Origin: an uncultured Thermoplasmata archaeon
GTDB taxonomy: Archaea > Thermoplasmatota > Thermoplasmata > SG8-5
Reading direction: 5' to 3'
Assembly (NCBI GenBank): GCA_964354755.1
Contig: CAYHBA010000002.1
Span: 92,002 to 156,001, forward strand
Length of the DNA stretch: 64,000 bases
The notes below the pieces were generated by a model that was not told the origin of the DNA, searched no databases, and saw only the letters and a list, made by a program, of their open reading frames with translations. Shown here piece by piece: positions 7,301 through 26,142 of this stretch. The first letter of the stretch is position 1; each line of letters opens with the position of its first letter. The position numbers and the translations under genes were made by a program.

Positions 7301-8986
7301 GAAACTTTTCTCATACTGGACAGTCATGTCCAGCGGAACCTTTCCGGGTTTGAGGGGTTTCAATGCTATGACCCTGCTGTCATGCTGCCCGGGTATGAGC
7401 TTCGGAATGGTCTGCCAGCCCTTGACCTCGACATCCCCGAAGAAATTCATGTCAATGTTCTTGGCAATGCTGTTCCCGGCATTGCTGAACTGCACATTCG
7501 CCCTTCCCCATTTCTGCGCCTCAAAACCCTCTGAATTTATGCTTATCTTAAGGCGCGGATGCTTGCCAGCCACTCCGGTTTTTATGGCTCCGCTCAATGC
7601 CGCTTCGGCTTTGTTGACGATGTCCGCAATCCCGGCGCCGTGGGCATCCTCGGCCTTTGCCTTGGAAGCCAGCATCTCCGCCTCTGCGACGTCTATGCCT
7701 ATGGTCTTTGCCTCTTCAAGCATTGTGAAAAGTCCCTCAAGCTTATTCTGGGTTTCCATGGTCTGGAATCCAGACTTGTCGTCCTGAATGTGCCTTCTCA
7801 GCTCTCTGGCAAGCTCGAATGATTTGTCGAGCCGATGGCCATTCAGCGCCTCCTCAGTGTCATTAATCAGTCTGTTGATTTCCGAGGCATCGATGCCGCT
7901 CGCTGTTGCCCTGCCAGCCAGAACCTTGGAGTCTTCGAGCTCTTCCTTTATCAGGGTGACGAACCCCTCCTCCTGTTCTTTGTCCAGGCTGCCGAAGTTA
8001 ATGCCTGTGAGCTTGTCGAAAAGCTTCAGGTTCTTCACGGCCTGCTTGGCACTCAGCTCCATTGCCCGGACCTCCGTGAAGTTGCCGTCGTGCAACGCGA
8101 TGGACGCTTTCTGCAGCATTTCCTCCAGATCATCGGATTTTATTCCTGCCCGTTTAGTCTCTCTCACGAATTGTCGTATGGTCCTGAGGGTCAGGTCAGC
8201 CTCCCTGCGCAATATCACCTTTTCAATTTCCCTGCGGATTTTGTTGACATTTGTCTTGACATCTCCGAACCTTTCGTCCTCGAGCGCCTTTTTCGCCTCC
8301 TTCAGAAGAACAGCCATCTCTTTTATGTCAACGCCCGACTCGGCCACCGTGTTTATCCTGGCCTCCATGTCCAAGATGGATATCTCATAACTTTTTTGTT
8401 CCTCGGCGATGTTAAGGACAGTAGAAGTCTTCTTCACCAGTTCGGTCACAAGGTCGAAATTTCCGCCGTTGAGTGCCTGCCAGGCCTCGAGAAGGATTGT
8501 TGTTGCCTCCTGGACATTCACACCCCTCCTCTTCGCAGCTTCGACGATTGGGGCTATCCTTTGAATATGCCCCTTGGCAGTCATGAAATGTTTGGCATTG
8601 TCCGCCTCCCTTCTGGCCAGTTTTATCTGCTCGTGGGCATCACCGAAATCCCCCCTCTCCAACAGTTCCCTGGCTTTTGCAAGCAATGCCTCGGAGGCGG
8701 CGACATTGGCTCCCGCCCTCTTCGCTTTCTCAATGATGGGGAGGGAATTGAAAATCATCATATCGTATTTCTTTTTGGCCTTGGCTTGTTTCAGCATCAG
8801 GTCTATGTTGTCCATTATTTTAGTGGCCTCTGCCTCCTCCCCCTTTTGCAGGCATTTTTCCACCTCGCTGAGCAGGGCAGCGGCCATTGCTACGTCTGCT
8901 CCGTCCTTCTTCACCCTCTCAATTTGCTTCTTGGTGGCCTCTAACCTTGCCCGAAGTTTTTTCAACCCACCTTTCTTTGGTTCCAT
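4367..8986 (-). CDS. Giant 1539-aa helical-repeat protein with two tandem [CARDB/Ig-like + Roadblock/LC7-like] modules
   Basis: An internal duplication of about 265 aa spans aa 476-745 and 934-1195 (nt about 6752-7561 and 5402-6187). The two copies include YLVEDAFLIHNNGLLISRQTRRIKEDVDSDLFSAMLTAISQF and YIVEDAFLIHNNGLLIARETRRIREEVDGDLFSAMLKAMTDF. About 40-aa two-helix repeats of the form GxDVxxAxxLL fill the N-terminus and the linker regions. Confidence 0.8.
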   Translation of the reverse strand: MEPKKGGLKKLRARLEATKKQIERVKKDGADVAMAAALLSEVEKCLQKGEEAEATKIMDNIDLMLKQAKAKKKYDMMIFNSLPIIEKAKRAGANVAASEALLAKARELLERGDFGDAHEQIKLARREADNAKHFMTAKGHIQRIAPIVEAAKRRGVNVQEATTILLEAWQALNGGNFDLVTELVKKTSTVLNIAEEQKSYEISILDMEARINTVAESGVDIKEMAVLLKEAKKALEDERFGDVKTNVNKIRREIEKVILRREADLTLRTIRQFVRETKRAGIKSDDLEEMLQKASIALHDGNFTEVRAMELSAKQAVKNLKLFDKLTGINFGSLDKEQEEGFVTLIKEELEDSKVLAGRATASGIDASEINRLINDTEEALNGHRLDKSFELARELRRHIQDDKSGFQTMETQNKLEGLFTMLEEAKTIGIDVAEAEMLASKAKAEDAHGAGIADIVNKAEAALSGAIKTGVAGKHPRLKISINSEGFEAQKWGRANVQFSNAGNSIAKNIDMNFFGDVEVKGWQTIPKLIPGQHDSRVIALKPLKPGKVPLDMTVQYEKSFDDTKFQLNDLKDIDVDETGTYLVEDAFLIHNNGLLISRQTRRIKEDVDSDLFSAMLTAISQFAIDSFKLEDKVALSRLEFGDNQVIIERGSCFYVAATLLGSDSVYMPFYISEIVGEIEEKFGETLSGWEGDISALAGVDDIVKKILFIKNTDSGVPYFENSILQPALDAIKNGAIIPDFDKNIKELLMSFEEELISGEMGDASELMGKIREKVEEGLGSALGEGEEEKRKDKMLMESMRSEVEIVRRQIERAETAGVDISKEDALLQELLNLLEEKDYASTRGMLTDIKNLLNEKDKRMAAESHLKHLDLLKSNLTAASRMGVDVSDIEGTVAGTENELSGMQAENIEARFRDIGNRLAERTGAFMANKYPKLQVDIGEAKGHEAGKWSRMDVVVSNKGNTPARNIGLNFTGDIEVKDTDTLDIIEPGSSRRAEVSVRPTKNGKLKVDVSASYQRYFDETKYQLNDMKDLDVQTQGSYIVEDAFLIHNNGLLIARETRRIREEVDGDLFSAMLKAMTDFIREAFNIQNKGGLDRMEFGGHKLLIEKGKYVFLAITVSGEESAYIPFFMTEVIREIENIYSGELKNWNGEMDALAGIKDIVKKIIFVNRTGIDGRPMLESSILAPILEKAGGGGIDGQKFEDIEKRIAEINYAVEQNGMEAAARYLTEMEAMLVKLASLPSTGGEGGENIDADSLKKRMYDVMIRSGRIDKDSAIMDARLNNYLEVVGKIADAVFGLREEHGIPAGQKLARVAIRHRDYERWNEVLENMRTLVLEQANAFDIQLLRRDEVWAGLVPAINVNEEHIRNSYKHIAKKIISVLQYMPPDKLLANIKKGTFTIGVEGQQIYITDDMVQISFSLPPGAFEGEIDSGTIYIDTMITEQVKSDVSLNALIDKIKEMRREVEIGDEAKIEVQVVTDDALAETLEGAKNTIMEKCNAYDVIFPLDDHLSTDEYHVGEIELNGEKCRIGIVQVDFEE

Positions 8987-9259: not shown

Positions 9260-9330
9260 GCCGAGGTAACATAGTGGCTATGTGGCGGACTGCAGATCCG
9301 CATACGGGTGTTCAAATCTCCCCCTCGGCT
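9260..9330 (+). tRNA. tRNA-Cys (anticodon GCA)
   Basis: Manual fold gives acceptor GCCGAGG/CCTCGGC, D-arm ACAT/ATGT, anticodon stem GCGGA/TCCGC with loop CTGCAGA, and T-arm GGGTG-TTCAAAT-CTCCC with one U-U mismatch. CCA is not encoded. Confidence 0.7.
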
Positions 9331-9379: not shown

Positions 9380-10927
9380 ATGAGAGAAAAGGTTCTGAAA
9401 ATCCTCCTAGACCATGGCACGCTTATCGAGCCAGAAGCAGCCGATTTCATACTAAAGCAAGGAGATCCAGTGGGCTTTATTAATAATTTTCTAGAGGGCA
9501 GGGGCAACCAGCCCCTGATCCTTACGGTCGACGACCTCGTGCCGGCCGCATCATTGGGCAACCTCGACCGGCCTCCGGCCCCGGCTCAGGCAGTGCGCGA
9601 GAACCCCCAGACCCAGGGGACGCTGCAGACAGCCACTTCCGAAAATGGAGCGGTTGACGCTCCGCCCGGAAAGCTGGCCGGCGGCAAGACCGAACCGGGT
9701 TATCACATAATATCGGATGTGACAGGGTCAAGCACATGCAACGGTTCGATAGAGAACTTCACCCAGTACTTCAGGGACAGGTTCAGGGTGCTGCGCAGAA
9801 TCATACGCTCGCACGCAGAAATGGGGGCCTCCGTGAAGATAGCTGCCCTCGATGCACAGGACAGGGAGGCCAGAGTCATCGGCATGGTCATGGATGTAAA
9901 CAAGACCAAGAACGGTCATATCGGGCTGACGATCGAGGACGACACAGGGGAACTGTATGTTCTGATTCACAAAGACACAGAACTGGTCAAGGAAACATAC
10001 CTCAAGGACGAGGTGCTGGGCTTTACAGGGCGGCTCAGTTCCGGCCGGAGCGGAAACGGCTCGCCTGACAAAAAGGGGGGTATGTTCATTGCCTCGGCAA
10101 TGCGCAGGCCCGGCATCCCCGCGATAAGGGAGCAGCGCCGCTCGTCCGAAGATGCGGAGGTGGTGTTCATGTCCGACATACACGCAGGCAGCTCGCATTT
10201 CCTTGCCGAGCCCTGGTTAAGGTTCATGGAATGGCTCAATTCGCCCCAGGCTGCCAAGGTGGATTATATTGTGGTGGCGGGAGACCTGGTGGACGGCATA
10301 GGTGTGTATCCGAACCAGGAGGAAGAGCTACAGATTCATGACATATACATGCAGTACGGCGAGCTTGCAAGGCTCATGGCCCCCGTGCCGGAGCGCATCC
10401 GGGTATTCCTCCAGCCAGGAAACCACGACGCTGTGCGGCCGGCAGAACCGCAGCCCGCCATACAGGAAAAATTCAGGAAGGGTTTCGGGCCGAATTTCAC
10501 ATTCATAGGCAATCCCTGCCATTTTGCCCTGGCCGGCGTTGAGATACTGTCATACCACGGGAAGAGCATCGACGACCTTGTAGGCCAAGTGCCAGGAGTG
10601 ACCTATCTTGACCCGATACCGCCCATGCACGAGATGCTGAAACGGCGGCTTCTGACCGTATCCTACGGCGGAAAGACCCCTCTGGCCCCCGAGGCAAGGG
10701 ATTACATGGCAATCAATCCCCTCCCAGACATTCTGGTGACAGGCCACGTGCACAGGGCCGCGATTCACAGGACCAGCGGGACGACCCTCATCAATGCCTC
10801 GGCCTGGCAGTCCCAGACCCCTTTCCAGAAGACGCACAACTTCAACCCTGACCCGGCGAAGATAATTGTCGTCAACCTGAAGACGGGACGATGCAGGATG
10901 GTGGACTTCCTCAGTCCAGCAGAATAA
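9380..10927 (+). CDS. polB1: DNA polymerase II (PolD) small subunit DP1
   Basis: Calcineurin-like phosphoesterase motifs MSDIHAGS, GDLVDG and GNHDA are present, and the N-terminus MREKVLKILLDHG is DP1-like. The start was moved to 9380 so the gene does not overlap tRNA-Cys. Confidence 0.8.
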   Translation: MREKVLKILLDHGTLIEPEAADFILKQGDPVGFINNFLEGRGNQPLILTVDDLVPAASLGNLDRPPAPAQAVRENPQTQGTLQTATSENGAVDAPPGKLAGGKTEPGYHIISDVTGSSTCNGSIENFTQYFRDRFRVLRRIIRSHAEMGASVKIAALDAQDREARVIGMVMDVNKTKNGHIGLTIEDDTGELYVLIHKDTELVKETYLKDEVLGFTGRLSSGRSGNGSPDKKGGMFIASAMRRPGIPAIREQRRSSEDAEVVFMSDIHAGSSHFLAEPWLRFMEWLNSPQAAKVDYIVVAGDLVDGIGVYPNQEEELQIHDIYMQYGELARLMAPVPERIRVFLQPGNHDAVRPAEPQPAIQEKFRKGFGPNFTFIGNPCHFALAGVEILSYHGKSIDDLVGQVPGVTYLDPIPPMHEMLKRRLLTVSYGGKTPLAPEARDYMAINPLPDILVTGHVHRAAIHRTSGTTLINASAWQSQTPFQKTHNFNPDPAKIIVVNLKTGRCRMVDFLSPAE

Positions 10928-11506: not shown

Positions 11507-11588
11507 TCTCGGCAGACTTTATTAATCCATTTTTGACATGTCAGTTTTCACCCCAAGGTTTATCGTGTCCCTGGGAAATCGGGAGCCG

Positions 11589-13883
11589 ATGGCTAGGAAG
11601 AGGCTTCTCACGGTCGAGGATGCGGTCCTGCTCCATCTGCTGGACTACACCAGGTTCACTCCCGAGGATTCTGTGCCCATGGAGCTCACCCAGGCCGGGA
11701 TGTCTGCAACACTCGGGGTAAGGCGCAGCCACATCTCGATGTCACTGGACGCGGCAGTTACACAGGGGAATGCAGAAGAGCATCTTTCCAGGGTGAAAGG
11801 GGAGAAGCGCAAGCGCAAGTGCTATTTCCTCACTCACGCAGGCAAAGAAGCAGCCAGGGGCCTGAAGGCTTCTGTTGCGGCCACCCGGGTCCGTGCGGAG
11901 CTTCCGGACGGAAGTCCGTTCAAAGGCACTCTTGACGGGCTCGCTGAAAAACTGGGCATCAGGCTGCCCGCACTGGCCCTGCTGGTCAAGGAAGGCCGTG
12001 TCAGCATTCCGGGCGCGGTCCGGGGATTTCCAAGACATGCAGCAAAGCTTCCCCAAGTAGCGGGGTTCAGGGGCAGGGAAGAGGAACTGATGAGGGTCTC
12101 CGAACTGCTGGAAGGGAAGGTCCGCAACCTTGCAGTCATAGGCATGCCCGGGATAGGCAAAACCGCGCTTGTGGCCAGGGCAGTGCAGGATTGCCCAGCC
12201 GACAGGATTCTTTGGTACAGCGTCACAGACTGGACAAGCCCCCGCAATGCCATAACCCATATTGCTGACATACTGTCTGCAGGCGGCTCGAACAGGCTGA
12301 AGAGATACCTGGAATTCCATGAGATACCTGACATGGGGGATGTGAGGGACATACTGGCTGCTGAAAGCTTGCAGCTTACCATGATTTTCGATGACTGCCA
12401 CAAAGCAGGCCAAAGCATGCAGGCATTCCTCGGGATGCTGGCGCATGCCTGCGATAAATCTTCCCGCCTCGGATTGTGCCTTGTCGGAAGGCACATCCAA
12501 TTCCTTGACGGGTTCAGGGCACATGGAGAGCAGTCAGGCACATCGGTCATTGTCCTGGGGCCTCTGGACATGGAGTCCAGCCTTGAAATGCTCAGGGACA
12601 GGGGAATAAAAGAGAACGAGGCCAAGGCCATTGCCGAGAAGAGCGGCGGCCATCCGTTCTATCTCTCGCTGGCAAAGTCGCGCTCAGACCCTGGCGACAT
12701 AACGGAAATGCTGGCCCGCGAGGTGCATGCCTCCTTGTCGGAAACCGAAGCAGGGCTCATGCACCAGATATCTGTCTTCAGGGAGCCGATATCAGCAGAA
12801 GAAATTGCAGAAACTCAGGATGAGATTGACGCGCTGGACAATCTGTCCCGGCTGTTCCTTCTTATCCGGGCGGGGGAATGGTCCATGCATTCCCTGCTGA
12901 GGGACTTCTATTATTCGAGGCAGCCGCAGCCCATGAGGGAGGCAAGGCATGAAAGGGCTGCGGAATACTACGCAATGCGGGGCCAGGGCGGAAGCGTGGA
13001 AAGGCTCTATCACCTGTTCATGGCCAGGGATTACGATTCTGCAGTCATGGGCCTTGTCTCTTCGGGGGGGAAACTTGTCACTCAGGGTTATGTGGACGAG
13101 ATACTGGCCCTGTGCGCCCTTGTGCCTGAAGGCTGGCAGAATCCGGACGACAGATTCGGCATAGGCTTCCTGCATGCATCGGCGCTGGATATGCTGGGCA
13201 GATGGGACGAGGCCTCGGACCTTTACAGGCAAAGCCTCGCCATCGCCAGGGAACTCGGTGATTTGGCAGGGGAGGCCAAGGTGCTGGGCCGGCTCGGGGC
13301 AGTACAGTACAGGAAGGGCGACCTGAAGGGGGCGAGGGGAACCCTTGAAAAAGCACTGGCAATGTCGACCGAATGCCCGGAAACACTGCGGGCAGAGCTC
13401 AGCGGAAGCCTGGGCGTGATCCTGTGGAAGCTCGGGGAAACAGACGATGCCAGGAAATCCCATGAATCCGACCTGCGCATATCACGGGAACAGGGGGACG
13501 GCAGGGGCATTGCCAGAGCCCTTAACAACCTGGGGATCCTGGACTGGCAGTCATCCGATTACACGAAAGCGCTGGAGAAATACGCGCAGGCACTGGCCTG
13601 CGCCGAGAAACTTGTCGATTCCAGGCTGGTGGCCATACTCTACAGCAACATGGGCGATGTGCACAGGTCCACAGGGAATCCGGCCGAGGCCAGGCGGTAT
13701 TACGAGAGATGCCTGGAACTGGCCGAAGACCTGAAATTCGACTGGCAGATAGCCGAAGCCTACAGAGGTCTTGCAGAAGTTGTTCCGGAGAAAAGGCAGG
13801 ACTACCTTTCAAGAGCGCTCAACATCTTCGAAAGGCTGGGCGCGGCCGAGGATGCGAAAACAGTAAGAGAGACAAGGAGATGA
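11589..13883 (+). CDS. wHTH-STAND (AAA) ATPase-TPR regulator; the longest ORF starts at 11538
   Basis: N-terminal winged-helix-like region, Walker A VIGMPGIGKT, Walker B MIFDDCH, and C-terminal TPR repeats. It is divergent from the pilin gene. Confidence 0.65.
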   Translation: MARKRLLTVEDAVLLHLLDYTRFTPEDSVPMELTQAGMSATLGVRRSHISMSLDAAVTQGNAEEHLSRVKGEKRKRKCYFLTHAGKEAARGLKASVAATRVRAELPDGSPFKGTLDGLAEKLGIRLPALALLVKEGRVSIPGAVRGFPRHAAKLPQVAGFRGREEELMRVSELLEGKVRNLAVIGMPGIGKTALVARAVQDCPADRILWYSVTDWTSPRNAITHIADILSAGGSNRLKRYLEFHEIPDMGDVRDILAAESLQLTMIFDDCHKAGQSMQAFLGMLAHACDKSSRLGLCLVGRHIQFLDGFRAHGEQSGTSVIVLGPLDMESSLEMLRDRGIKENEAKAIAEKSGGHPFYLSLAKSRSDPGDITEMLAREVHASLSETEAGLMHQISVFREPISAEEIAETQDEIDALDNLSRLFLLIRAGEWSMHSLLRDFYYSRQPQPMREARHERAAEYYAMRGQGGSVERLYHLFMARDYDSAVMGLVSSGGKLVTQGYVDEILALCALVPEGWQNPDDRFGIGFLHASALDMLGRWDEASDLYRQSLAIARELGDLAGEAKVLGRLGAVQYRKGDLKGARGTLEKALAMSTECPETLRAELSGSLGVILWKLGETDDARKSHESDLRISREQGDGRGIARALNNLGILDWQSSDYTKALEKYAQALACAEKLVDSRLVAILYSNMGDVHRSTGNPAEARRYYERCLELAEDLKFDWQIAEAYRGLAEVVPEKRQDYLSRALNIFERLGAAEDAKTVRETRR

Positions 13884-15809: not shown

Positions 15810-15818
15810 ATTAATATG
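15810..15818 (+). promoter_or_regulatory. TATA-box-like element upstream of tRNA-Leu
   Basis: ttaatatgt lies about 28 nt upstream of the tRNA 5' end. Confidence 0.4.
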
Positions 15819-15844: not shown

Positions 15845-16053
15845 GCGAGGATAGCCAAGCCCGGCCAATTATGCTTACAGGCATCATTGCTTTGCAATGC
15901 AAGCTGAGTTCACAGGCCACGGCGATAGGAGCGGCCACACCTGGCCGCGACTAAGCCGATGACCGGATATCGGAGCCTGCAGGCATAGGTCATCGGCGAT
16001 AGACTCAAGATCTATTCCTTAGTGGTTCATCGGTTCGAATCCGATTCCTCGCA
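15845..16053 (+). tRNA. tRNA-Leu (anticodon CAA) with an intron of about 126 nt in the D-loop. Exons are 15845-15868 and 15995-16053.
   Basis: Acceptor GCGAGGA/TCCTCGC pairs 7 of 7. The Leu-type D-arm GCC-AAGCCCGGCCAA-[intron]-GGC is present. Anticodon arm is ATAGA-CTCAAGA-TCTAT, with a variable arm and T-arm ATCGG-TTCGAAT-CCGAT. The intron contains a 10-bp hairpin GCCGATGACC/GGTCATCGGC next to the 3' junction. Confidence 0.6.
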
Positions 16054-16430
16054 TATTATTTCCATAATCTCTTTGAGCATATGCTCGTCAGCACCGTTCC
16101 TTTCGCCGCAGCGAAAGGTATGCGCCCGGACGGGAAGTTTGAGAGAGACGAAACCGTGCGACCCATGCAAGAGCTAATAATATGGCACCCCGCCCTCTGC
16201 GCCGAATTGTGCGCAATTCGGCTTGCTCGCATCGATGTTGATAAACTGAAAGGAAGCTACGATGCTCGTACAGGCGGGGCTTGTTGCAGATAAACCGCCT
16301 TCATGCACGCCATGCGAAAGCGCACTCGCGGCCATATCGTTTCAAGACCCCGGGCTTACACCCGGGGCATGCTGGTGAGAAAGCGACGTGAATGGCGCTG
16401 GGTTGGCCGGCGCTCGTGCTGCGCCATCTA

Positions 16431-16440
16431 AACATTTATA
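16431..16440 (+). promoter_or_regulatory. BRE/TATA-like element upstream of tRNA-Val
   Basis: aacatttata lies about 30 nt upstream of the tRNA 5' end. Confidence 0.45.
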
Positions 16441-16469
16441 CACGATGGGCATTTCCCACAATACCCGAT

Positions 16470-16572
16470 GGGCCGGTGGTCTAGTGGTTCTGGTGCCGGG
16501 TTTTCCGACATCAACACAAATGACGTCGCCCTTACAAGGCGAAGATCGGCGGTTCAATTCCGCCTCGGCCCA
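16470..16572 (+). tRNA. tRNA-Val (anticodon UAC) with a 30-nt intron in the D-loop (16490-16519)
   Basis: Acceptor is GGGCCGG/TCGGCCC with a G-U at 7-66. D-arm is GTC-TAGTGGTT-[intron]-AT-GAC. Anticodon arm is TCGCC-CTTACAA-GGCGA, followed by a 5-nt variable loop and T-arm GGCGG-TTCAATT-CCGCC. Confidence 0.65.
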
Positions 16573-16845
16573 CTCTTTTTTCATTTTGTTATCATACGTG
16601 GGCCTCAGCGGAATTCACAACTTATGGTGGGATATGTTGGGGTCTTAAGTTGTGAACACAGCCGAATTCCTCTGGTGTCATATGCTGAATACGGAATTCG
16701 GCTTGGCCGCGAAATATGCTTCGATATAGCCAGGGTCTTAATTCGCGGCTTCCGCCCCGGCCCCTGTGCAACTTCCGATTGCGGCCTTTGTGATGCTAGA
16801 CTTCGGGATTTTGGTGGGGGGATAAGCCGGGGGGAAGTCGCTTTA

Positions 16846-18951
16846 TCATACGATTTTTAACTTCATCCTCCTCTTCCTCGCGCAGATTGGACACCAATGT
16901 TTCTGTTTTACACTCGAAGGTGTAGCTTTCCATATGTGGCCATCTGCACATTGCCAATCTAACTTTATATGGTTTCCAAAGTATTTTTCTGAAAGGCAAC
17001 GACCGCCATGTTCAGCAGCCATCTCCCGCATCTTTTCAATAGTAAGTCTCTTCGGTCCCATTGTCTTTCTCATGCATGTAGTACACCAATGACCCGCTCT
17101 GATGTTTTGAGGTGTAGCCCACCATTCATGGCCAAATTCACAGCGCCAGTGTAGGTTAGTGCTATTATTGACATACACATCAGATAGACACTCACCTTTC
17201 CTTTCCCTGGCAATTTCTCGCATCATCTCGATTGTCAGTTTCTTTGCATTGTCTGAGCACTGCCTGCACCAATTACCCTTTTTTACACTGCTTGGATTCA
17301 TCGAGAACTTGTGCCCAATTTTACACTGCCATTTCAATTTGACATTTGCTCCAAGATACCTATCGGAAAGGCATTCTCCTCCCTGTTCTTTAGCTAATTC
17401 TCTCATTTCTTCAATGGAACCAACATTGTGTCCACAATATGGGCACCAACTACCACGAATTACATTGCTCGGTGTTGCCTTCCAGGTATGTCCTTTAGAA
17501 CATTGCCATTCTAATTTGCGATATATGCCCCGATATTCTTTGGATAGACAAAGACCGCCATGTTTCCTTGCTACTTCCATCATCTCTTCAATTGTTCTGT
17601 TTCGACCATAGCATTTCGGGCACCACGAGCCCATCTGTTTGATAGAATAAGGGATTGCTTCCCAAACATGTCCTTTACTACATCTCCATTTTAATTTCTT
17701 ATCTGTTGAATAATAAATATCAGATAAGCACTCCCCCCCTCGTTCTTTAGCCAGTTGCTGCATTTCTTCCAATCGTTTCCTGGAAAACACATCGAAATCC
17801 AGGTAATTAATTGTTGAAAGGTCTACATTGATGCTAATTTCTCTTTTTTTACATTCTTGAGCAATATATTGGCCCATCTCCTTGTGCGAAACGTCGTAAG
17901 GCACTTCAATCAGAGTGACATGGTTCCTGGCACATATTGACCGTTTCCATTGATCTCGTTGTATCAATTCATGTAATTTATCCTCCCCATATATCGGACG
18001 TGTGTGTTGAGCCCCCTGATATTCAAATGCCAGCTTCAGGTCTTTGTTAAACCCATCCAATTCCATTTTTTGCGATGTTTCTAAATTTACTAACCACGAA
18101 GGCCGTACCTTCTTGAATTTCACTCCGAAAATAGCCTCAAACCAGCCTCGGCAGATATTTTCACTGAGTGTGTTTCTACATATTGGGCACCAATTACCTT
18201 TATTAATTTCGGCCCAAGGGGCTTCCCAATCATGACCCTCGCAGCATTTCCATTTTAATTTTGTATGTGCGTTTTCATATTCATCAGATAGGCATTCGCC
18301 ACCTCTTTTTTTCGCTTCATTCTTCATTTGTTCAAGTGTATGTCTCATATGGCCAGAGCATTGAAGACACCATCGGCCAGTTCTAATGTCTCTCGGAGTA
18401 GCCCACCAAGTATGGCCTTTTTTGCATTGCCATTGTAATTTTGAAGCATTCCCCCCATAGTCAACCGAAAGGCATTTACCACCTTTCGCTGCAGCATTTA
18501 TTTTCAGGTCTTCAATGGTTAGCCGTTTCTGTCCAGCACATTCTGGACACCAATGTCCATTTATTATTGCTCCTAGGCTTGTTTTCCAAATATGTCCTTC
18601 TTTACATTGCCATTTCAAATGCGTTTTACTATTAACATATTTTTCAGAGAGGCATTTACCCCCTTTATTGTGTGCTATCTCTTGCATATCCTTGATTGTT
18701 TTACAAAAATGTCCTGCACACTCTGGGCACCATGTTCCCATTCTTATATGATTAGGAACTGCCTTCCAGACATGTCCTTTGGCACATTGCCATGTTAGAT
18801 GGGTTTGACTATTGATATATGCCTCTGAGAGACATTTGCCTCCCCGTTCCTTTGCAAGGTTCTGCATATCTTCTATTGTGTACCTTATCCGAGCCATTAT
18901 ATCACTCAATTGCTCGTCTTCGACCCCTTTCATAATATTCTTTACATTCAC
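16846..18951 (-). CDS. Protein with nine tandem zinc-ribbon repeats (4 + 5) flanking a central PD-(D/E)xK / DUF559-like nuclease domain
   Basis: The repeat unit is about 58 aa, for example LTIEDM.A.ERGGKCLS..Y.....L.WQC..GH.W.A.P...R.G.WCP.C.G. The central segment MELDGFNKDLKLAFEYQGAQH resembles the catalytic core of restriction-endonuclease-fold (Vsr/DUF559) proteins. Low GC. Confidence 0.65.
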   Translation of the reverse strand: MNVKNIMKGVEDEQLSDIMARIRYTIEDMQNLAKERGGKCLSEAYINSQTHLTWQCAKGHVWKAVPNHIRMGTWCPECAGHFCKTIKDMQEIAHNKGGKCLSEKYVNSKTHLKWQCKEGHIWKTSLGAIINGHWCPECAGQKRLTIEDLKINAAAKGGKCLSVDYGGNASKLQWQCKKGHTWWATPRDIRTGRWCLQCSGHMRHTLEQMKNEAKKRGGECLSDEYENAHTKLKWKCCEGHDWEAPWAEINKGNWCPICRNTLSENICRGWFEAIFGVKFKKVRPSWLVNLETSQKMELDGFNKDLKLAFEYQGAQHTRPIYGEDKLHELIQRDQWKRSICARNHVTLIEVPYDVSHKEMGQYIAQECKKREISINVDLSTINYLDFDVFSRKRLEEMQQLAKERGGECLSDIYYSTDKKLKWRCSKGHVWEAIPYSIKQMGSWCPKCYGRNRTIEEMMEVARKHGGLCLSKEYRGIYRKLEWQCSKGHTWKATPSNVIRGSWCPYCGHNVGSIEEMRELAKEQGGECLSDRYLGANVKLKWQCKIGHKFSMNPSSVKKGNWCRQCSDNAKKLTIEMMREIARERKGECLSDVYVNNSTNLHWRCEFGHEWWATPQNIRAGHWCTTCMRKTMGPKRLTIEKMREMAAEHGGRCLSEKYFGNHIKLDWQCADGHIWKATPSSVKQKHWCPICARKRRMKLKIV

Positions 18952-19156
18952 TCAACGTATAATCATTTAAAGACTTCGGTATATTGGCCGCAAACGTATC
19001 TAATATAAAAAATAATAAAACTCTTTTTACCTTTGGGGTTAATATTCCCTTTATATCTTCATCATTTCCTGTCCAATTTTGTTTTACAGCATATGTTACT
19101 AGTTCTTTCATTAGTCTTTGAAATTCAGCTTCCCGAAACATGCCATTCAACCTCAC
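18902..19156 (-). CDS. Hypothetical 84-aa protein; overlaps the start of the zinc-ribbon gene by 50 nt
   Basis: ORF only, no recognisable domain. Possibly co-transcribed with the gene at 16846. Confidence 0.25.
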   Translation of the reverse strand: MRLNGMFREAEFQRLMKELVTYAVKQNWTGNDEDIKGILTPKVKRVLLFFILDTFAANIPKSLNDYTLSECKEYYERGRRRAIE

Positions 19157-19209
19157 ACTTAATATCCATAATGATTTCAGAATGTATAATGGTTTACCGA
19201 AAGACTAAT

Positions 19210-19233
19210 AAAGAGAAAAAGAGGGACGATTTC
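19210..19233 (-). terminator. Shared T-rich terminator-like motif
   Basis: Minus-sense reads gaaatcgtccctctttttctcttt just 3' of the gene ending at 19269. Variants of the same motif occur at 23272-23297 and 26101-26123. Confidence 0.45.
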
Positions 19234-19268
19234 CTGAACAATACACATTTTTAATTGAGAATACAGCA

Positions 19269-19814
19269 TTATAGAACTATTCTTACCCAACATGAACCAA
19301 AACACACTGGGCATCTGCCAGTGCCATTGCAATATGAGCAAGGTTTTTTCAGAATACTACCAATTTTACCAGTCCCGTGGCACTGCGAACACATTCCTGA
19401 AGGCCTACCTGAAACCAATCCATATGGGCCTATTGGATCACAAGCAATGCAAGTGGCAACTCTCTGCCTCTGATGCTCTCTGCATAAATTACGACCTCCA
19501 TCATTAACGATTCTGCCCATGTTTGCCGCACTCTGGAATAGACCCTGTTCTCGCGAATTTAGTTTACTGCAAAAATAACATTCCTGTTTCTCGCAAATTT
19601 CACACTTGAATAAACGATTACCTTCTGTCAGAGTGTTACCACAATTTGGACATAATGGTAGACTGCTAACTGCCCCAGTGTGATGAACCTGCATACTATT
19701 TTCTTCTATCAGAACTTTACCTCCGCAATGACTGCAATATCCAATTTTTAAAGTATCTGGGAATTGAAGATCCGCACCACAATTTGGACATCTTGCAGGA
19801 ATTAAGTTCACCAT
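19269..19814 (-). CDS. Cys-rich zinc-finger protein with several CxxC/CxxCxGxG-type ribbons; start trimmed to the Met at 19814
   Basis: Contains CPNCGADL, CSHCGG, CPNCGNT, CEICEKQECYFC, CSQCHGTGK and CSYCNGTGRCPVCFGSC. Confidence 0.5.
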   Translation of the reverse strand: MVNLIPARCPNCGADLQFPDTLKIGYCSHCGGKVLIEENSMQVHHTGAVSSLPLCPNCGNTLTEGNRLFKCEICEKQECYFCSKLNSREQGLFQSAANMGRIVNDGGRNLCREHQRQRVATCIACDPIGPYGLVSGRPSGMCSQCHGTGKIGSILKKPCSYCNGTGRCPVCFGSCWVRIVL

Positions 19815-19835
19815 AACATTCCCTTTGTTAATGTT

Positions 19836-19860
19836 AAAGCCCGGTAATAAGGCTTTCGTC
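19836..19860 (-). promoter_or_regulatory. Shared promoter-like motif: a TTATTA TATA-like element sits inside the inverted repeat AAAGCC...GGCTTT
   Basis: Minus-sense reads gacgaaagccttattaccgggcttt about 38 nt upstream of the ATG at 19814. The same motif occurs upstream of at least four other island genes. Confidence 0.5.
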
Positions 19861-19917
19861 AGGAGGCAGGGATCCTCCGGCAGGGCATCACGCCGGCCAG
19901 GGGCTTCAGGATACATT

Positions 19918-20355
19918 CTACCATATGTAATGTTTAACATTATTTCGACAATTAATGCAATATCTTGTATCTGGTGCAAGATTGGTTTTGCATCGGTGAC
20001 ATTCAAAATAACCTTTTTCTCTAATCATTTCTATTCGATTTAAATTATATAATCCCTCTAAGAATAATAAGATTGAACATAAAATAAGGATTATCCACGT
20101 ATATACACGAGTATGTATTAGTTCATTCCATCCTTTAATAAGGGGTATAACAATTATTATCATCCATACAATGATTGGAGAAAAAATTGAGGTGTAAGTA
20201 TACCATTTTAATTTTCGAGGTATTGCGTTGTTTTGAAGAATGTATGTTTTTTGAACATGCCCGCATTTGTCACATTTTGATGTCGAAATGGGATTTGCAC
20301 AGTAACCGCACCAGTTATGATGGAAATCACTTCTTTGAGGAATAATTGTTGACAT
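19918..20355 (-). CDS. Zinc-ribbon membrane protein, hypothetical
   Basis: N-terminal C-x2-C...C-x2-C ribbon. C-terminal C-x2-C...C-x2-C ribbon. Two or three TM helices lie between them. Confidence 0.4.
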   Translation of the reverse strand: MSTIIPQRSDFHHNWCGYCANPISTSKCDKCGHVQKTYILQNNAIPRKLKWYTYTSIFSPIIVWMIIIVIPLIKGWNELIHTRVYTWIILILCSILLFLEGLYNLNRIEMIREKGYFECHRCKTNLAPDTRYCINCRNNVKHYIW

Positions 20356-20370
20356 GCGCCTTTCGCCCCT

Positions 20371-20406
20371 CAAGTGAATGCGAAAGCCCGGTAATAAGGC
20401 TTTCGT
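20371..20406 (-). promoter_or_regulatory. Shared promoter-like motif copy upstream of the gene starting at 20355
   Basis: Minus-sense reads acgaaagccttattaccgggctttcgcattcacttg, followed by gaggggcgaaaggcgc and then ATG. Confidence 0.5.
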
Positions 20407-20450
20407 AAGCCAGCCCAGTGGTAATTTCGCCTTGGTCTTTGATCTTCGAC

Positions 20451-20972
20451 TTAATCCAGTGTGAAGGTTGTAGGTTCATCCATCCGAAGTAAATCCTCCC
20501 ATGAATATTCCCAAATGACTACCGAATAAGTCGTATGCTGACCAAGGTTAGAAACAACGATGAAATCATTTTTATTAACCTCATTCTCCTGGAAATTCAT
20601 GTCTGTGTACTCTGCTGATGCGCCTCCTGTTGCACTCATCGTAACAGTTGATGCGCCCGGTGGGGTCTGTAAATATATTTCCACAACATCAGATTGATTC
20701 GAAGTATTGGTGATAATCAATTTTATATCACATGGCATTGGATTATAACTGGGTGGTGGGTGTCCAGCTAATATCTCCATAAAAATGATTTTCACACTCG
20801 TTGAACTTTGAACATCGAATTGTAGTTTGGCATGAGGGGATGTGTCTTTGGGTGGTCCGAATGGACCTATACCCAATGCCATTGCGAGAGTTAGCGGAAT
20901 TAAAACTGCCCCGGCTACTACAATGAAAATAATTTCACCTTTGTAATTCTCCCAATTCCTTTTGGATTTCAT
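20451..20972 (-). CDS. Archaeal type IV pilin-like protein (class III signal peptide); paralog of the protein at 10964-11506
   Basis: KG then EIIFIVVAGAVLIPLTLAMAL. The shared C-terminal domain is PPGASTVTMSATGGASAEYTDMNF. Confidence 0.65.
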   Translation of the reverse strand: MKSKRNWENYKGEIIFIVVAGAVLIPLTLAMALGIGPFGPPKDTSPHAKLQFDVQSSTSVKIIFMEILAGHPPPSYNPMPCDIKLIITNTSNQSDVVEIYLQTPPGASTVTMSATGGASAEYTDMNFQENEVNKNDFIVVSNLGQHTTYSVVIWEYSWEDLLRMDEPTTFTLD

Positions 20973-21028
20973 TGCATATGAATTGATTTGAATCTATATA
21001 TAGTTATTATTGACATGTCAATAATGAT

Positions 21029-21055
21029 CCTGTAACAAGGCTTTCGTTTGTTACC
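21029..21055 (-). promoter_or_regulatory. Shared promoter-like motif variant upstream of the pilin-like gene
   Basis: cctgtaacaaggctttcgtttgttacc lies about 60 nt upstream of the start at 20972. Confidence 0.35.
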
Positions 21056-21111
21056 AATCCACAGTCCAAACAGCATCCACTGGGACATGAATCCAAAATA
21101 TCCGAGTATTT

Positions 21112-21199
21112 TTCTTTTAAATTTTCTCCGCTGGCTCGGGCTCTAAAGAAAAATATTCAGCAAAGAAGAAACTCGCCACTCGCCTGCTCGAAAATTCAT
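21112..21199 (-). terminator. T-rich terminator-like element (repeat family 2, copy 2) 3' of the surface-protein gene
   Basis: About 80% identical over 90 nt to the element at 3126-3218. Minus-sense is T-rich. Confidence 0.45.
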
Positions 21200-23215
21200 T
21201 TACCAATTAATTGTCCATATCGTATCCGCAACCACGTGTACCCAGTACCCTTCGCCCGGCTTCATGATGTATGTCGGGCCGGCCTCGGATATTAGGTATG
21301 GTGAGGCAGGGTCGAAGACCTCCACCCGATTCGCCCCTGTACCCCAGAGGGCGTTGGCTACTGTGGTATTATTGTTCAAGGTGGGGAAGCTGACCAGGTT
21401 CCAACCCGCGTAAAGAATGATGCTGGTGGATTGCGGTTCCGCCCCGAAAACTGTCAAGTTGCAGGCCACCGTGGCGTGTAGCCATAAACCCATCGTGTTG
21501 TCGATATAGGTGAGGTCGTTGGCTGTGCCTCCTATTCGGTATGACTTCCAAGGATCCATTTTATCTGTTGGGTCGCACCATTTCACGACATCCCATTTTC
21601 CAGAAATGGAGGACAGTACATTCTCTATTGAGGTACTGGTCATTTCGAAAGGCACAGAGACGAGGTTCCAACCAGCTATAAGTTCGATGGTGCAGACCTG
21701 TGGCAAGGGTTGCCACCGGAACAACGGGTAAGTAATACCCTCCCTCATCCACCAGATGTTTTCGAAGTCCCAGCTTACGTTAGTAAATGTGCTCTGGGTT
21801 TTCATCACGACCGTTGTTTCTCCGGTAGCGTTGCCCGCGGTGCTGTTTTGCCCGCTGGTTTCGACGTCCCAGAAGTTGCCAGTCATCTCATAGTTCCCGC
21901 CTGTGAATATGTCTCCGACAAAGCCTTTGTTCGTTGGATTTGAACCACCATAATAAATCACCTGGCCCGTGGAATAACAGTTGATGATCTTGCCTTGATA
22001 ATTTCTCGCGGCAAACCCACCGAAATACTCATTTGTCCCAGATGAACGTGTCACTGTTCCAGTGGCGTATGAATTTCTAATAGTTCCTAGATAATTCTGA
22101 CTCACTAGTCCGCCAACATACCATACACTTCCACTTACGTTTCCAGTAGCATACGATTTATTAACCGTTCCCCTATTCTGTCCTATTAAACCACCAACAT
22201 TGGATTCTCCAGTTGTGGCTCCAGTGGCATAACAAGCCCTCACTGAGCCCATATTTTCTCCTATTAAGCCACCTATATTATTGAAAGAACCAGTCACTGT
22301 TCCAATGGCGAATGAGTCAATTACAGCGCACCCCCCTAATTCGTTGTAGCCCACGAGTCCTCCCACAATAGAACCACCAATAACATTTCCCATGGCATGT
22401 GAGTTTAAAACCAGGTCTCGGTTTACTCCCACGAGCCCGCCGACACTACCACCGGTACCGCTCACATTTACAATGGCATATGAGTTGTTCACCGTGTCAT
22501 AGTTCGCTCCTATAAGCCCACCGATTCGATGTTTTCCATTCACGGTGCCTGTAGCATGTGAGTTGGCCACAATACCATAGCTGTAACCCACAAGCCCGCC
22601 AATATAATAACTACCAGTTCCACTAACGGTACCTATGGCATATGAATTTGTTATCGTACCCTGATAGTTTTGACCTACGAGCCCGCCAACATACTCGTAT
22701 CCACTCACGGTTCCAGTGCAGTATGAGTTGGTCACTGTATCACAGTTAAATCCCACCAGGCCGCCAACATTGGATCTTCCAGTGATATTGACTTCAATGA
22801 GGCCAACGTTCTTTACGAAACCCCCACTATCAATATATCCGAGGAGTCCTTGATAATTCGTACCCGTTCGGTTGATGTGCAGTCCAGTGATGGTGAAGTT
22901 CTGGCCGTCAAGACTACCGGTAAACCGATTTGGATTTGTTCCAACCGCCACGAAACCTGCGCCACTGTTCCAGTTTATAGTATCGTGCGCGTCAATGTCA
23001 TTCCCCAATGCATAATGTGCCGTTAAGTTCAAACTCATATTTTGCAGTTCCCACACATTCTCAATTATATACGGGTCCTCGACCGTTCCGGAACCCCCAG
23101 CTAAAGCGGTTACTGGTACATCTGAACTCACAACCTCATCCACACATATTCCCACAAACATGCCGCTGAGAAGCATCAGGGCAACGATATAAATTAAGAT
23201 TGACTTCTTCCACAT
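21200..23215 (-). CDS. Secreted surface protein with GLUG-motif beta-helix repeats (VGGLVG.N.G.I.NSYATG) and a duplicated C-terminal beta domain
   Basis: Signal peptide MWKKSILIYIVALMLLSG. More than 12 GGLVG/GGLIG repeats. The C-terminal GWNLVS.P...EAGPTYIMKPGEGYWVHV domain occurs twice. Confidence 0.6.
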   Translation of the reverse strand: MWKKSILIYIVALMLLSGMFVGICVDEVVSSDVPVTALAGGSGTVEDPYIIENVWELQNMSLNLTAHYALGNDIDAHDTINWNSGAGFVAVGTNPNRFTGSLDGQNFTITGLHINRTGTNYQGLLGYIDSGGFVKNVGLIEVNITGRSNVGGLVGFNCDTVTNSYCTGTVSGYEYVGGLVGQNYQGTITNSYAIGTVSGTGSYYIGGLVGYSYGIVANSHATGTVNGKHRIGGLIGANYDTVNNSYAIVNVSGTGGSVGGLVGVNRDLVLNSHAMGNVIGGSIVGGLVGYNELGGCAVIDSFAIGTVTGSFNNIGGLIGENMGSVRACYATGATTGESNVGGLIGQNRGTVNKSYATGNVSGSVWYVGGLVSQNYLGTIRNSYATGTVTRSSGTNEYFGGFAARNYQGKIINCYSTGQVIYYGGSNPTNKGFVGDIFTGGNYEMTGNFWDVETSGQNSTAGNATGETTVVMKTQSTFTNVSWDFENIWWMREGITYPLFRWQPLPQVCTIELIAGWNLVSVPFEMTSTSIENVLSSISGKWDVVKWCDPTDKMDPWKSYRIGGTANDLTYIDNTMGLWLHATVACNLTVFGAEPQSTSIILYAGWNLVSFPTLNNNTTVANALWGTGANRVEVFDPASPYLISEAGPTYIMKPGEGYWVHVVADTIWTINW

Positions 23216-23387
23216 CGTGGATAATAGGAACGTTCTGCTAAATTAACCTTTCCTATGTGATTTATAGTTCATAAAAGAGAAAAAGATGGCCGGTTTCCCC
23301 GCATTCCGAGATTTTAATTCACGTATGAACTAACCTTTAGCCAGCAGAGTCAGATTCAATTCCGCCTTTAATGGACGAATCCAGATA

Positions 23388-25733
23388 CTACCAATCCACA
23401 GTCCATATTGTATCCGTTGGGACATGTACCCAGTACCCTTCGCCCGGCTTCATGATGTATGTCGGGCCGGCCTCCTTGATGTAAGGCGAAACAGAGTCGA
23501 ACGCCTCCACCCTATCCGCTCCCGTGCCCGAGAGAGCCTCTGCGACTGTCATTTCCGAATTCCGGGCCGGGTATCCGACCATGTTCCATCCTGTGTGCAG
23601 AGATATGCTTGTGGATGCGGGCATAATTCCCTCGCCTGCGGTCAGCACCCCGTCCCCGCCGTTGTCGGTGATGTGGAGCCAGATGCCCATGGTATTGTCG
23701 ATCTCCGGCATGTCGTTTGACGATGCCTGCCCTTTCTTATTGAATGATTTCCAGGGGTCCGCAGCATCCTGGGTGTCGAACCACATCGCCCGGTCCCAGG
23801 TCGTGCCGCCGTCTCCATACAATACATCGTTGAACACGGCAGTAATTCTTGTATGGACAGTCAATGGTACGGAAACGAAGGTCCAATAGCCGGTGCCGTC
23901 TCTTGACCGGTTGCTATCTGTATTCACGTCGAAAGTCTTCCAGTTGAACGGCCCTGCTTCCGGCGCAGTGCCGTTGGCAGGAATGCCGACATCATCGGCT
24001 CCGCCCTTCGCGTTCGCGATCCAGTAGAATTTACTCGGCTTTGGGCAGGGATTGGATTCGGGGGTCCAGTCGAACGAGCCATCCACACTTGCATCTGTCC
24101 CGATACAGTTCCAGTTGTCTCCGTGGTTCGTAGAATAAAACAGGTCGATTTCTGTCGGGGTTTCTGTCCAGTTATAGGTGATTGTAATGATTGGGTCGTG
24201 GCCGGCGCCCTGGGGGCCGGTGGCGGTGGCTGTTGAATTTGAATAAACCGTGACGTTTAAAGTATCAATTGAATACAAACCAGTTGTACTTGTAACATTT
24301 AAAGTCACAGTATAGACCCCTATAGATTCATATTTATGAGTTGGAGTAGAACCTATTGCGTCAATATCATTCGTTGGATTACCATCTTGATTAGTATCAA
24401 TATTAGCATTGAAATCCCAACTATAACTAAGTACTTCTGCATTTTTTGCATTATCCCATTGCCAGAGTAGATTTGAACCACCTGCTGTGGTGAACACGTA
24501 TAAAGTTCCATTTGAAGTTGCGCCAGCGTAATAATTTCCATCAAAAGAGCATGAGATATGATTGACAATTCCATTAGTATAAAAAATAGATTCTGGTGTT
24601 CCATTTGCTGGCGTGAATTGATATATTCCTCCATCTTGATTACCGCCAAAGATGTATTGACCATCAGTAGCCATATCTAATGACATACATGCCATACTGG
24701 TCACATGGGTCCAAATTGGAGAAGAACTTGAATTACTGAAAAGTCGAAACCCGTGAGAGGTAGAGGCTCCCCTAGTCTTATACTCTGCAGTGGCAATATA
24801 TTGACCATTATCTGCTGTAACCATCCCGATATGTTTCCCCAAAGATTCTGCAACCCATATACGATTTCCATTGTTATTAAATAACTGTGTATGTTGTAAA
24901 TCGCCTTGTCCCGCTGCAATTTTATTACCATAATAATCTAAAGAAATAGTATAAATTGGACAAAAATAATCAGAATTTTCAGGGAGTATTTTAAAAATGA
25001 AACCTTCTGAAATACCATAATACCGAATTTCATACCAGAATGAGCCTGCGGCAAAGTGAGTACCGTCACCCGAAAATCGAACACTCAATACGGACTGAGG
25101 GAAATCAAAAATATTTATTGGTGATCCTGAATTTGTTTCAAAGAGATAAACTTTACCTACTTTTTCCATTTGAGCTGAAATAGAGAGAAATGTTCCTAGA
25201 GCAATATAATTTCCATCACGAGTCATATCGAAGGCTCTCCGACTTGTTCCATATATGGGATAATTGGTTTGATATGTCCATATCGGTGTACTTTGATTGG
25301 TATTAAAAAAGGAAACATAACCTCTCGATTCCCAAGTATTTGATGGGTCATCATTTTGTGCGGTTGCAAGGTATGTGCCATTTTCAGAAAGAACAACAGC
25401 TACAACTGTTTTTTCAGTGTTAAATGTCCAAAGAGGCTCACTGTTGTTAAGATGAAATAAAGTAATATTTGTTCCCCATCCAATAACAATATAATTACCA
25501 TCCCCAGATATATCTACTACATTAATCGCTTGTCTGTAATTTGGATCATAAGATCCAGTTCCATTGAACTGAACGATTTCATTTACATCTACAAATTGAT
25601 CTGGACCAGCATCAGCTATTGGTGGCAATAAATTATTTATTATATTTTTATCTATGGTTGAAGAAATAACAGTGGGGCTGATGAGAAGAATAACAATTAC
25701 TATTGGTAAGAAAAATGTTCTCATACTTTTCAC
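23388..25733 (-). CDS. Secreted surface protein with beta-propeller repeats, a PKD domain and a C-terminal domain shared with the protein at 21200-23215
   Basis: Signal peptide is present. Propeller blades are YIATA- and YFAAG-type. The PKD-like segment reads TPTHKYESIGVYTVTLNVTSTTG. The last roughly 45 aa are nearly identical to the neighbour at 21200, with a 50-nt identical stretch in the DNA. Confidence 0.6.
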   Translation of the reverse strand: MKSMRTFFLPIVIVILLISPTVISSTIDKNIINNLLPPIADAGPDQFVDVNEIVQFNGTGSYDPNYRQAINVVDISGDGNYIVIGWGTNITLFHLNNSEPLWTFNTEKTVVAVVLSENGTYLATAQNDDPSNTWESRGYVSFFNTNQSTPIWTYQTNYPIYGTSRRAFDMTRDGNYIALGTFLSISAQMEKVGKVYLFETNSGSPINIFDFPQSVLSVRFSGDGTHFAAGSFWYEIRYYGISEGFIFKILPENSDYFCPIYTISLDYYGNKIAAGQGDLQHTQLFNNNGNRIWVAESLGKHIGMVTADNGQYIATAEYKTRGASTSHGFRLFSNSSSSPIWTHVTSMACMSLDMATDGQYIFGGNQDGGIYQFTPANGTPESIFYTNGIVNHISCSFDGNYYAGATSNGTLYVFTTAGGSNLLWQWDNAKNAEVLSYSWDFNANIDTNQDGNPTNDIDAIGSTPTHKYESIGVYTVTLNVTSTTGLYSIDTLNVTVYSNSTATATGPQGAGHDPIITITYNWTETPTEIDLFYSTNHGDNWNCIGTDASVDGSFDWTPESNPCPKPSKFYWIANAKGGADDVGIPANGTAPEAGPFNWKTFDVNTDSNRSRDGTGYWTFVSVPLTVHTRITAVFNDVLYGDGGTTWDRAMWFDTQDAADPWKSFNKKGQASSNDMPEIDNTMGIWLHITDNGGDGVLTAGEGIMPASTSISLHTGWNMVGYPARNSEMTVAEALSGTGADRVEAFDSVSPYIKEAGPTYIMKPGEGYWVHVPTDTIWTVDW

Positions 25734-26049
25734 TTCACCTATAATATGAATGATTATGCATCCTTATAATGTTTTCGTGTAAGCTTACTAAAATTAGATA
25801 ATAAATGGTCATTTTTAGACATTTTAATATGCTGGCACCTGACCACCATTTAGTAAAAATACAAGTTCTTCTCCTATCTGTAATGTAGTAAGTGAACTTC
25901 TGTTTCCAATTAAACGAAATTCTAATCCCCCACAACCTAATCTATTTCTAAACGACTTTAAAATCTTTTCTATTTACTTACGATGACCGCCAAACACTTT
26001 GTTTTTTATGCACATTAATCGGGCATACAGCCCTAGCCAGTAGTCGCTT

Positions 26050-26091
26050 GCCCCAAGTGAATGCGAAAACTCAGTATTAAGGGTTTCGTCG
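26050..26091 (-). promoter_or_regulatory. Shared promoter-like motif variant, about 320 nt upstream of the start at 25733 across an AT-rich leader
   Basis: ccccaagtgaatgcgaaaactcagtattaagggtttcgtcg is related to the motif at 20371-20406. Confidence 0.35.
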
Positions 26092-26142
26092 ATAAGAAGA
26101 AAGAGAAAAAGGGGGACGATTTCGTCGCCTTCCATTTCGCCC

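Follow-up and report, generated by a model that had tools for sequence, protein, structure and literature searches.

The window, as we call the whole 64-kb stretch of DNA that was analysed, contains on its forward strand (15845-16053, +) an intron-interrupted gene for a class II tRNA-Leu(CAA), delimited from the sequence and by splicing in silico. Exon 1 (GCGAGGATAGCCAAGCCCGGCCAA; 15845-15868, +) provides the acceptor 5' strand, U8 and A9, the D-stem strand GCC and the D-loop as far as A21; exon 2 (15994-16053, +) provides C22, the D-stem 3' strand GGC, G26, the anticodon arm with its CAA anticodon, the long variable arm, the T arm, the acceptor 3' strand and A73, and does not encode the terminal CCA. 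Between A21 and C22, at the border of D-loop and D-stem, lies an intron of 125 nt (15869-15993, +), the ends of which, and hence the start of exon 2 at C15994, are fixed by the bulges of a bulge-helix-bulge (BHB) splice motif and by intron-less orthologues. An earlier note had located the same gene from its letters, and the elements that it quoted (exon 1; the anticodon arm ATAGA-CTCAAGA-TCTAT; the variable arm; the T arm ATCGG-TTCGAAT-CCGAT; the acceptor 3' strand TCCTCGC, with 7/7 pairs; and the discriminator A) are found where it placed them. Its intron of about 126 nt is corrected to 125 nt, and exon 2, which it began with the D-stem GGC (G15995), starts one base earlier, at C22. The insertion site is the 3' end of the D-loop (21/22) and not 37/38, that is, a non-canonical position. 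Each exon sequence occurs only once in the window.

As it stands in the window, the gene is missed both by ARAGORN, which the earlier note had proposed to run, and by Rfam at the gathering threshold; the sole call that either makes in the window is a tRNA-Cys (9260-9330). Once the insert is deleted in silico, ARAGORN calls tRNA-Leu(caa) with a complete cloverleaf, in which the mature D arm reads GCC-AAGCCCGGCCAAC-GGC, the same form as in the intron-less orthologues on contigs L126 and L131. Below the threshold, Rfam reports a pseudo-tRNA at 15979-16053 (+) (28.6 bits against a gathering threshold of 29) that takes GCAGGCA, from the intron, as the partner of the true acceptor 3' strand. The hit is an artefact, produced because the 3' half of the gene is intact; its pseudo-acceptor pairs at only 5/7 positions and is not conserved, and automated pipelines could list it as a truncated or odd tRNA in place of the real interrupted gene. 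About 30 nt 5' of exon 1 lies an A/T-rich TATA-like box (TTAATATG; 15811-15818, +), which is also present 5' of the tRNA-Leu orthologues in L126, L113 and L125; read from the sequence, it is a candidate archaeal promoter for the whole precursor. No comparable box was seen inside the intron.

A second interrupted gene, tRNA-Val(UAC) (16470-16572, +), is encoded 420 nt downstream and supplies a further D-loop intron of the kind that the earlier note had suggested looking for among other tRNA genes. Its exon 1 (16470-16489, +) and exon 2 (16520-16572, +) are separated by an intron of 30 nt (16490-16519, +) at position 20/21. This gene, too, escapes ARAGORN and the Rfam gathering threshold, the only sub-threshold Rfam match covering 16520-16565 (25.5 bits), and ARAGORN calls it as tRNA-Val(tac) after splicing in silico. 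Because both genes are missed by both programs, the tRNA sets of such metagenome-assembled genomes (MAGs) will look incomplete, with consequences for estimates of completeness and for inferences on codon usage.

The window encodes the small subunit of the archaeal DNA polymerase D (PolD), which identifies the host as archaeal, and a creatininase gene near the tRNA pair is related to genes of Ca. Proteinoplasmatales archaeon SG8-5 and of Thermoplasmatota MAGs. The host is an archaeon related to Ca. Proteinoplasmatales/SG8-5, a Thermoplasmata-affiliated group of which some records carry the name Methanomassiliicoccales. Homologues of the interrupted gene were gathered by a pattern scan of reference genomes, by one metagenome scan and from contigs with creatininase orthologues, and twelve orthologous tRNA-Leu(CAA) genes were collected. 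The genome scan found the same interrupted gene in a Thermoplasmata MAG (L008) and in 'Methanomassiliicoccales archaeon UBA280' (L113); three of the five matches of the metagenome pattern scan (L121-L123) proved to be protein-coding false positives. The gene order PolD-TPR-creatininase-tRNA is conserved among the orthologue contigs, including those in which the tRNA-Leu gene has no intron at the D-loop site (L126-L128 and L131-L132, two lineages). Ten genes (that of the window and nine others), belonging to five or six lineages around Ca. Proteinoplasmatales/SG8-5, carry an intron of 46-125 nt at the same site: 125 nt in the clade of the window (the window, L125, L113 and L008), 123 and 122 nt in a second long-intron clade (L124 and L135), 98 nt in SG8-5 (L133), and 46-49 nt, unrelated in sequence, in the short-intron lineages (L136, L137 and L138).

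The unconstrained lowest-energy fold of the 210-nt precursor (15845-16054) has a free energy of -85.6 kcal/mol (z = -4.7 against 200 shuffles), and its pair table contains a strict 3-4-3 hBHBh' motif exactly at the junction. The 5' strand of the motif (15859-15869, +) consists of the exon 1 D-loop bases GCC-C-GGCC (15859-15866) and the adjoining bulge; the 3' strand, hereafter Y, is GGTC-ATC-GGC (15988-15997, +), comprising the 3' end of the intron and the start of exon 2. Helix h has 3 bp (G15859-C15997, C15860-G15996 and C15861-G15995) with C15862 bulged; helix H has 4 bp (G15863-C15991, G15864-U15990, C15865-G15989 and C15866-G15988); and helix h' has 7 bp, from U15870-A15987 to U15876-A15981 (UAUGCUU at 15870-15876 with AGGCAUA at 15981-15987). 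Splice sites were set by cleavage after the second base of each bulge, a rule rechecked against the canonical 37/38 geometry, which places the 5' site at A15868|U15869 within the bulge A15867 A15868 U15869 and the 3' site at U15993|C15994 within the bulge A15992 U15993 C15994. Pair probabilities in the motif are 0.76-0.92 (0.76-0.80 for the 5' strand in the full precursor), and its weak point is the short h helix of 3 bp with a bulged C. When the whole precursor is scanned for the 3-4-3 geometry, the 15869/15993 junction site is by far the best, and candidates for a nested or second BHB inside the intron are only weak minimal matches, none of them conserved. Shuffled introns yield a paired H together with an h' of at least 4 bp at the required junction in 0.035% of trials. 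The relaxed bulge-helix-bulge/hBH motif that the earlier note envisaged, in which one bulge would be lost or disrupted, is replaced by a strict hBHBh' between the exon 1 D-loop and the intron 3' end plus exon 2 start, with both 3-nt bulges and the 4-bp H intact.

Comparison of the homologues shows that this motif is maintained. Helix H is paired 4/4 in the same register in all ten intron-bearing genes, with an h' of 3-12 bp, and in a gap-free alignment of the junction (A3) 90.7% of cells are paired, a proportion that falls to 24-44% if the partners are shifted by 1-3 columns. In H, three of four pairs alternate between G-C and G-U; in h', both partners change in four pairs (14 cells). The observed covariation score of the junction alignment is reached by none of 500 shuffles; the BHB is absent from the lowest-energy folds of the three most distant homologues (L136-L138). 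The intron-less orthologues (L126-L128, L131-L132) read GGCCAACGGCGATAG (GGCCAA|CGGCG), which is the predicted ligation product. The central proposal of the earlier note, a tRNA-Leu(CAA) with a long intron at a non-canonical D-loop position, is thereby upheld by the BHB in the fold, by covariation of the motif in ten homologues and by the junction in intron-less orthologues.

The exons are 96-100% identical where homologous introns are 60-87% identical. The intron of the window is 87-97% identical to those of close relatives and 60-62% identical to those of L124, L135 and L133, while exon 1 is identical in L125, L113 and L008 and agrees at 23/24 bases in L124, L133 and L135. The T stem and the acceptor pair 7-66 vary among relatives solely by compensatory changes, the T-stem variants being ATCGG/CCGAT, ACCGG/CCGGT and GCCGG/CCGGT. 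Because the exons are conserved while the introns diverge, and because stem changes are only compensatory, the gene is taken to be a working one, and a pseudogene is ruled out for practical purposes.

It is very probable, in our judgement, that 15845-16053 is a functional tRNA-Leu(CAA) gene with a strict-BHB intron that is removed from one precursor through cleavage by EndA and ligation by RtcB. We infer the following course of events, including the enzymes, the chemistry of cleavage and what becomes of the intron: a single precursor would be transcribed from a start downstream of the TATA-like box; GCC-C-GGCC of exon 1 would pair with GGUC...GGC at the border of intron and exon 2, the two ends of the intron pairing together; the splicing endonuclease EndA would cut at both splice sites, by analogy with characterised archaeal tRNA introns; an RtcB-type ligase would join the exons to give ...GGCCAA-CGGCG...; the 125-nt intron would be freed, probably as a circle; and CCA would be added post-transcriptionally. 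To our knowledge, EndA and an RtcB-type ligase are encoded by all known archaea; no gene for either turned up in the window or among the loci collected, with M. jannaschii EndA as tblastn query. According to published work, a strict BHB is a substrate for every type of archaeal EndA, alpha'2 among them, and the part of the Euryarchaeota that includes Thermoplasmata encodes the alpha'2 endonuclease, which is of narrow specificity and accepts strict BHBs only (PMC5829648, PMC6379350). The strict motif of the tRNA-Leu intron is what an alpha'2-type enzyme would need.

A BHB-spliced intron in the D-loop is of a known kind; what is unusual here is the host group, the length and the conserved, structured interior. 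D-loop BHB introns are established in Crenarchaeota and Methanopyrus kandleri, with positions 20/21 and 22/23 given in reviews (PMC4090602). The non-canonical introns of Thermoproteales, of Aeropyrum pernix tRNA-Thr and of M. kandleri tRNA-Glu likewise lie outside the anticodon loop, in the D-loop, have a BHB formed between exon and intron, and are presumably removed by EndA and RtcB, as here (PMC4090602, PMC5829648, PMC3241643). The M. kandleri tRNA-Glu intron, however, has a relaxed HBh' motif, whereas the tRNA-Leu intron of the window has the strict hBHBh'. Published archaeal tRNA introns are 11-129 nt long, with medians of 12-25 nt (PMC4090602), and the 125-nt intron of the window is near the top of that range. 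Euryarchaea with alpha4 or alpha'2 endonucleases have been described as carrying tRNA introns only at 37/38, non-canonical introns tracking the broad-specificity enzymes (PMC4090602, PMC5829648); the host of the window stands on the Thermoplasmata side of the Euryarchaeota, to which reviews assign only canonical introns and the alpha'2 EndA. The literature searched yielded no publication about tRNA introns of Methanomassiliicoccales, Thermoplasmata or Proteinoplasmatales, and curated tRNA databases may already list such genes. A mesophilic Thermoplasmata-related lineage is here seen to have long introns at 21/22 (tRNA-Leu) and 20/21 (tRNA-Val), and its relatives have them also at 59/60, with lengths of up to 248 nt. 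The strict BHB agrees with the notion that a narrow-specificity enzyme is limited by the geometry of the motif and not by its position, and the lineage offers a natural test case for the co-evolution of endonuclease and intron, the more notable if the order as a whole were a general exception to the rule that links endonuclease type to intron position.

The interior of the intron contains two further elements related to the junction. Z (15905-15918, +), GGCCA-CGGCGATAG, repeats, in the same sense, the junction that splicing creates (GGCCAA|CGGCGATAG in the mature tRNA); a local alignment of the intron with the mature tRNA is equalled by 7/2000 shuffles for the window, and by 7-12/2000 shuffled introns overall, and an 11-mer of Z, AACGGCGATAG, is present exactly in L124 and L133. 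This internal copy spans no more than 11-14 nt and belongs to a conserved RNA helix. X (15951-15964, +), CTAA-GCCGATGACC, is antisense to Z and likewise to Y. Its partner in the splice-competent state, as represented by the lowest-energy fold and by the RNAalifold consensus, is Z (15905-15913). X is also the 5' arm of a 10-bp helix, GCCGATGACC (X, 15955-15964) with GGTCATCGGC (Y, 15988-15997), which the earlier note had described across the 3' junction: the complementary 10-mers exist and are conserved, but the helix is not part of the splice motif, and it is mutually exclusive with the BHB because Y is the 3' strand of both. When X:Y is forced, the resulting fold lies 2.4 kcal/mol above the lowest-energy fold, the exon 1 D-loop then pairs with Z, and the 3' splice site is masked. 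In the seven long-intron homologues X:Y forms 10, 10, 10, 10, 9, 10 and 8 of its 10 pairs, and the pairing is kept although Y differs at four positions between lineages, including bulge bases that are unpaired in the BHB fold; the statistics of X:Y are weak because only about three independent lineages contribute. Neither X nor Z is present in the short introns that L136-L138 carry at this site, so these elements are not needed for splicing as such.

Of the two hairpins that the earlier note had drawn in the intron, CATTGC/GCAATG (15885-15890 with 15894-15899) is in the lowest-energy fold, but ATGC-TTACAG-GCAT is absent from it because the same bases form h' of the splice motif. The fold also contains a central hairpin, GCGGCCA-CACC-UGGCCGC (15921-15938, +), in which one pair changes from G-C to A-U in L008. 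A box C/D guide RNA was considered and rejected: the intron has one CUGA (15895-15898) and, 59 nt from it, one GAUGA (15958-15962), an incomplete set of boxes with D' before C', wrong both in order and in spacing, and L124 (GTGAA), L135 and L133 do not share the GAUGA. The intron of Haloferax volcanii tRNA-Trp is also long (about 100 nt), structured and conserved, with an interior complementary to its own exons; it differs in lying at 37/38 and in hosting a box C/D guide RNA with C, D', C' and D boxes, which the intron of the window lacks.

The arrangement of X, Y and Z could be a folding switch or a footprint of the origin of the intron. That the intron is a two-state RNA switch gating its own splicing, with X:Z freeing Y for the BHB and X:Y burying the 3' splice site, is an unlikely though not negligible proposal. 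If it were true, splicing could serve to adjust how much tRNA-Leu(CAA) is supplied, and the locus would be the more notable for having X, Y and Z as a functional element; we know of no description of splicing-step control of this sort for archaeal tRNA introns.

Three other accounts of the locus were weighed against a functional gene with a strict-BHB intron. The gene might be a dead tRNA, broken by an insertion (the remnant of a mobile element or the debris of a duplication) while a separate, intact tRNA-Leu(CAA) does the work. The junction copy Z could be read as a recombination or duplication footprint, and a low-GC insertion of ~9.4 kb lies just downstream; but the exons keep 96-100% identity, and their stems change only by compensation, in lineages whose introns are 60% identical or unrelated; the splice motif is kept with covariation in 10/10 homologues; and no exon fragment is repeated within the window. 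On these grounds such an account is very improbable. Hardly credible is the suggestion that the splice signal is a relaxed motif built on the GCCGATGACC/GGTCATCGGC helix and requiring a broad-specificity endonuclease. The helix is perfect in the window and keeps 8-10 of its 10 pairs in the seven homologues despite changes in the junction strand, yet the 3' splice site would then lie inside a continuous duplex and the X:Y pairing would offer no substrate geometry, because the site has neither bulge nor loop; the strict BHB on the same strand, in contrast, is the lowest-energy fold and predicts the junction of the intron-less orthologues, and the short introns of L136-L138 have the H helix and no X.

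Group I introns are known in tRNA-Leu genes, and a self-splicing group I or group II intron would be another way of interrupting this one; against it, the intron matches no Rfam family, intron families included, even at E <= 10, its 125 nt are too few for a group I or II ribozyme, and the insert is in the D-loop and not in the anticodon loop. Split tRNAs, whose halves are joined in trans, likewise occur in nature (PMC3218864), but here the two halves follow one another on one strand in every homologue (125 nt apart in the window), and the sole TATA-like box is 5' of exon 1. A split tRNA or a self-splicing intron has, on this evidence, a very small chance of being the correct description. The preferred reading is accordingly that of one continuous, functional tRNA-Leu(CAA) gene spliced at a strict BHB.

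The BHB of the tRNA-Val(UAC) intron is slightly relaxed in the clade of the window, with a G-A mismatch in H, and is paired 4/4 in L124 and L126. The tRNA-Val intron is present in every relative examined; in the closest ones it is 30-31 nt long, and in L131 and L133 about 100 nt. In these two its first bases repeat those at the start of exon 2, ATGACGTC in L131 ((+), ~9720-9886) and ATGAC in L133 ((-), ~7330-7494), so that the exact junction is ambiguous in both; the copy resembles a target-site duplication and recalls the junction copy Z of tRNA-Leu. The T-loop of tRNA-Leu(CAA) is intact in the window, but in L124, L126, L131, L133, L135 and L136 the gene has a second non-canonical intron there (59/60; GGTTCGAA|...|TCCGG), located at 10195-10336 in L124, from ~10395 in L126 and on the minus strand in L131. 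Its lengths by lineage are 34, 48, 113, 120, 142 and 248 nt, the last (L131) exceeding the quoted range of 11-129 nt, and in L133 it has a strict BHB (h 5 bp, h' 5 bp). At fixed sites, tRNA introns are patchily present or absent among close relatives of the window, and relatives with and without each intron provide material on the gain and loss of tRNA introns.

Directly downstream of the tRNA pair lies the low-GC stretch (~16712-26146, ~9.4 kb; 0.37-0.49 against 0.55-0.58 elsewhere), which is absent from the syntenic L113 and encodes DUF4379/CapR zinc-ribbon, GLUG and WD40/PKD repeat proteins; no integrase or recombinase and no tRNA-derived att repeat was found in it, nor were att-type repeats of tRNA-Leu or tRNA-Val found elsewhere in the window or at the border of the island. 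A search against viral and integrative elements returned 0 matches for the exon junction region, and 11 for a 16-mer of the intron core that extend over only 16-19 nt, which is chance level. The window also encodes three large paralogous AAA_16 ATPase and TPR-repeat proteins, STAND-like (11538-13883, +; 26975-30040, -; 34749-37700, -), the first of which is the TPR member of the conserved PolD-TPR-creatininase-tRNA neighbourhood.

The tRNA-Val segment (16271-16711) is inverted in L113 (5186-5627), where it lies on the opposite side of tRNA-Leu, so that tRNA-Val is divergent and upstream of tRNA-Leu there and tandem and downstream in the window, a sign that the surroundings of the tRNA pair have been rearranged locally. 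In L126 a tRNA-Leu-like remnant, GCGAGGA...GGAGGTTCCTCGCA, follows the real gene (~10480-10600), and in L137 the tRNA-Leu 3' end TCCGGTCCCTCGCA occurs again ~160 nt downstream (5985-5998, -); these remnants may be scars of recombination or integration.
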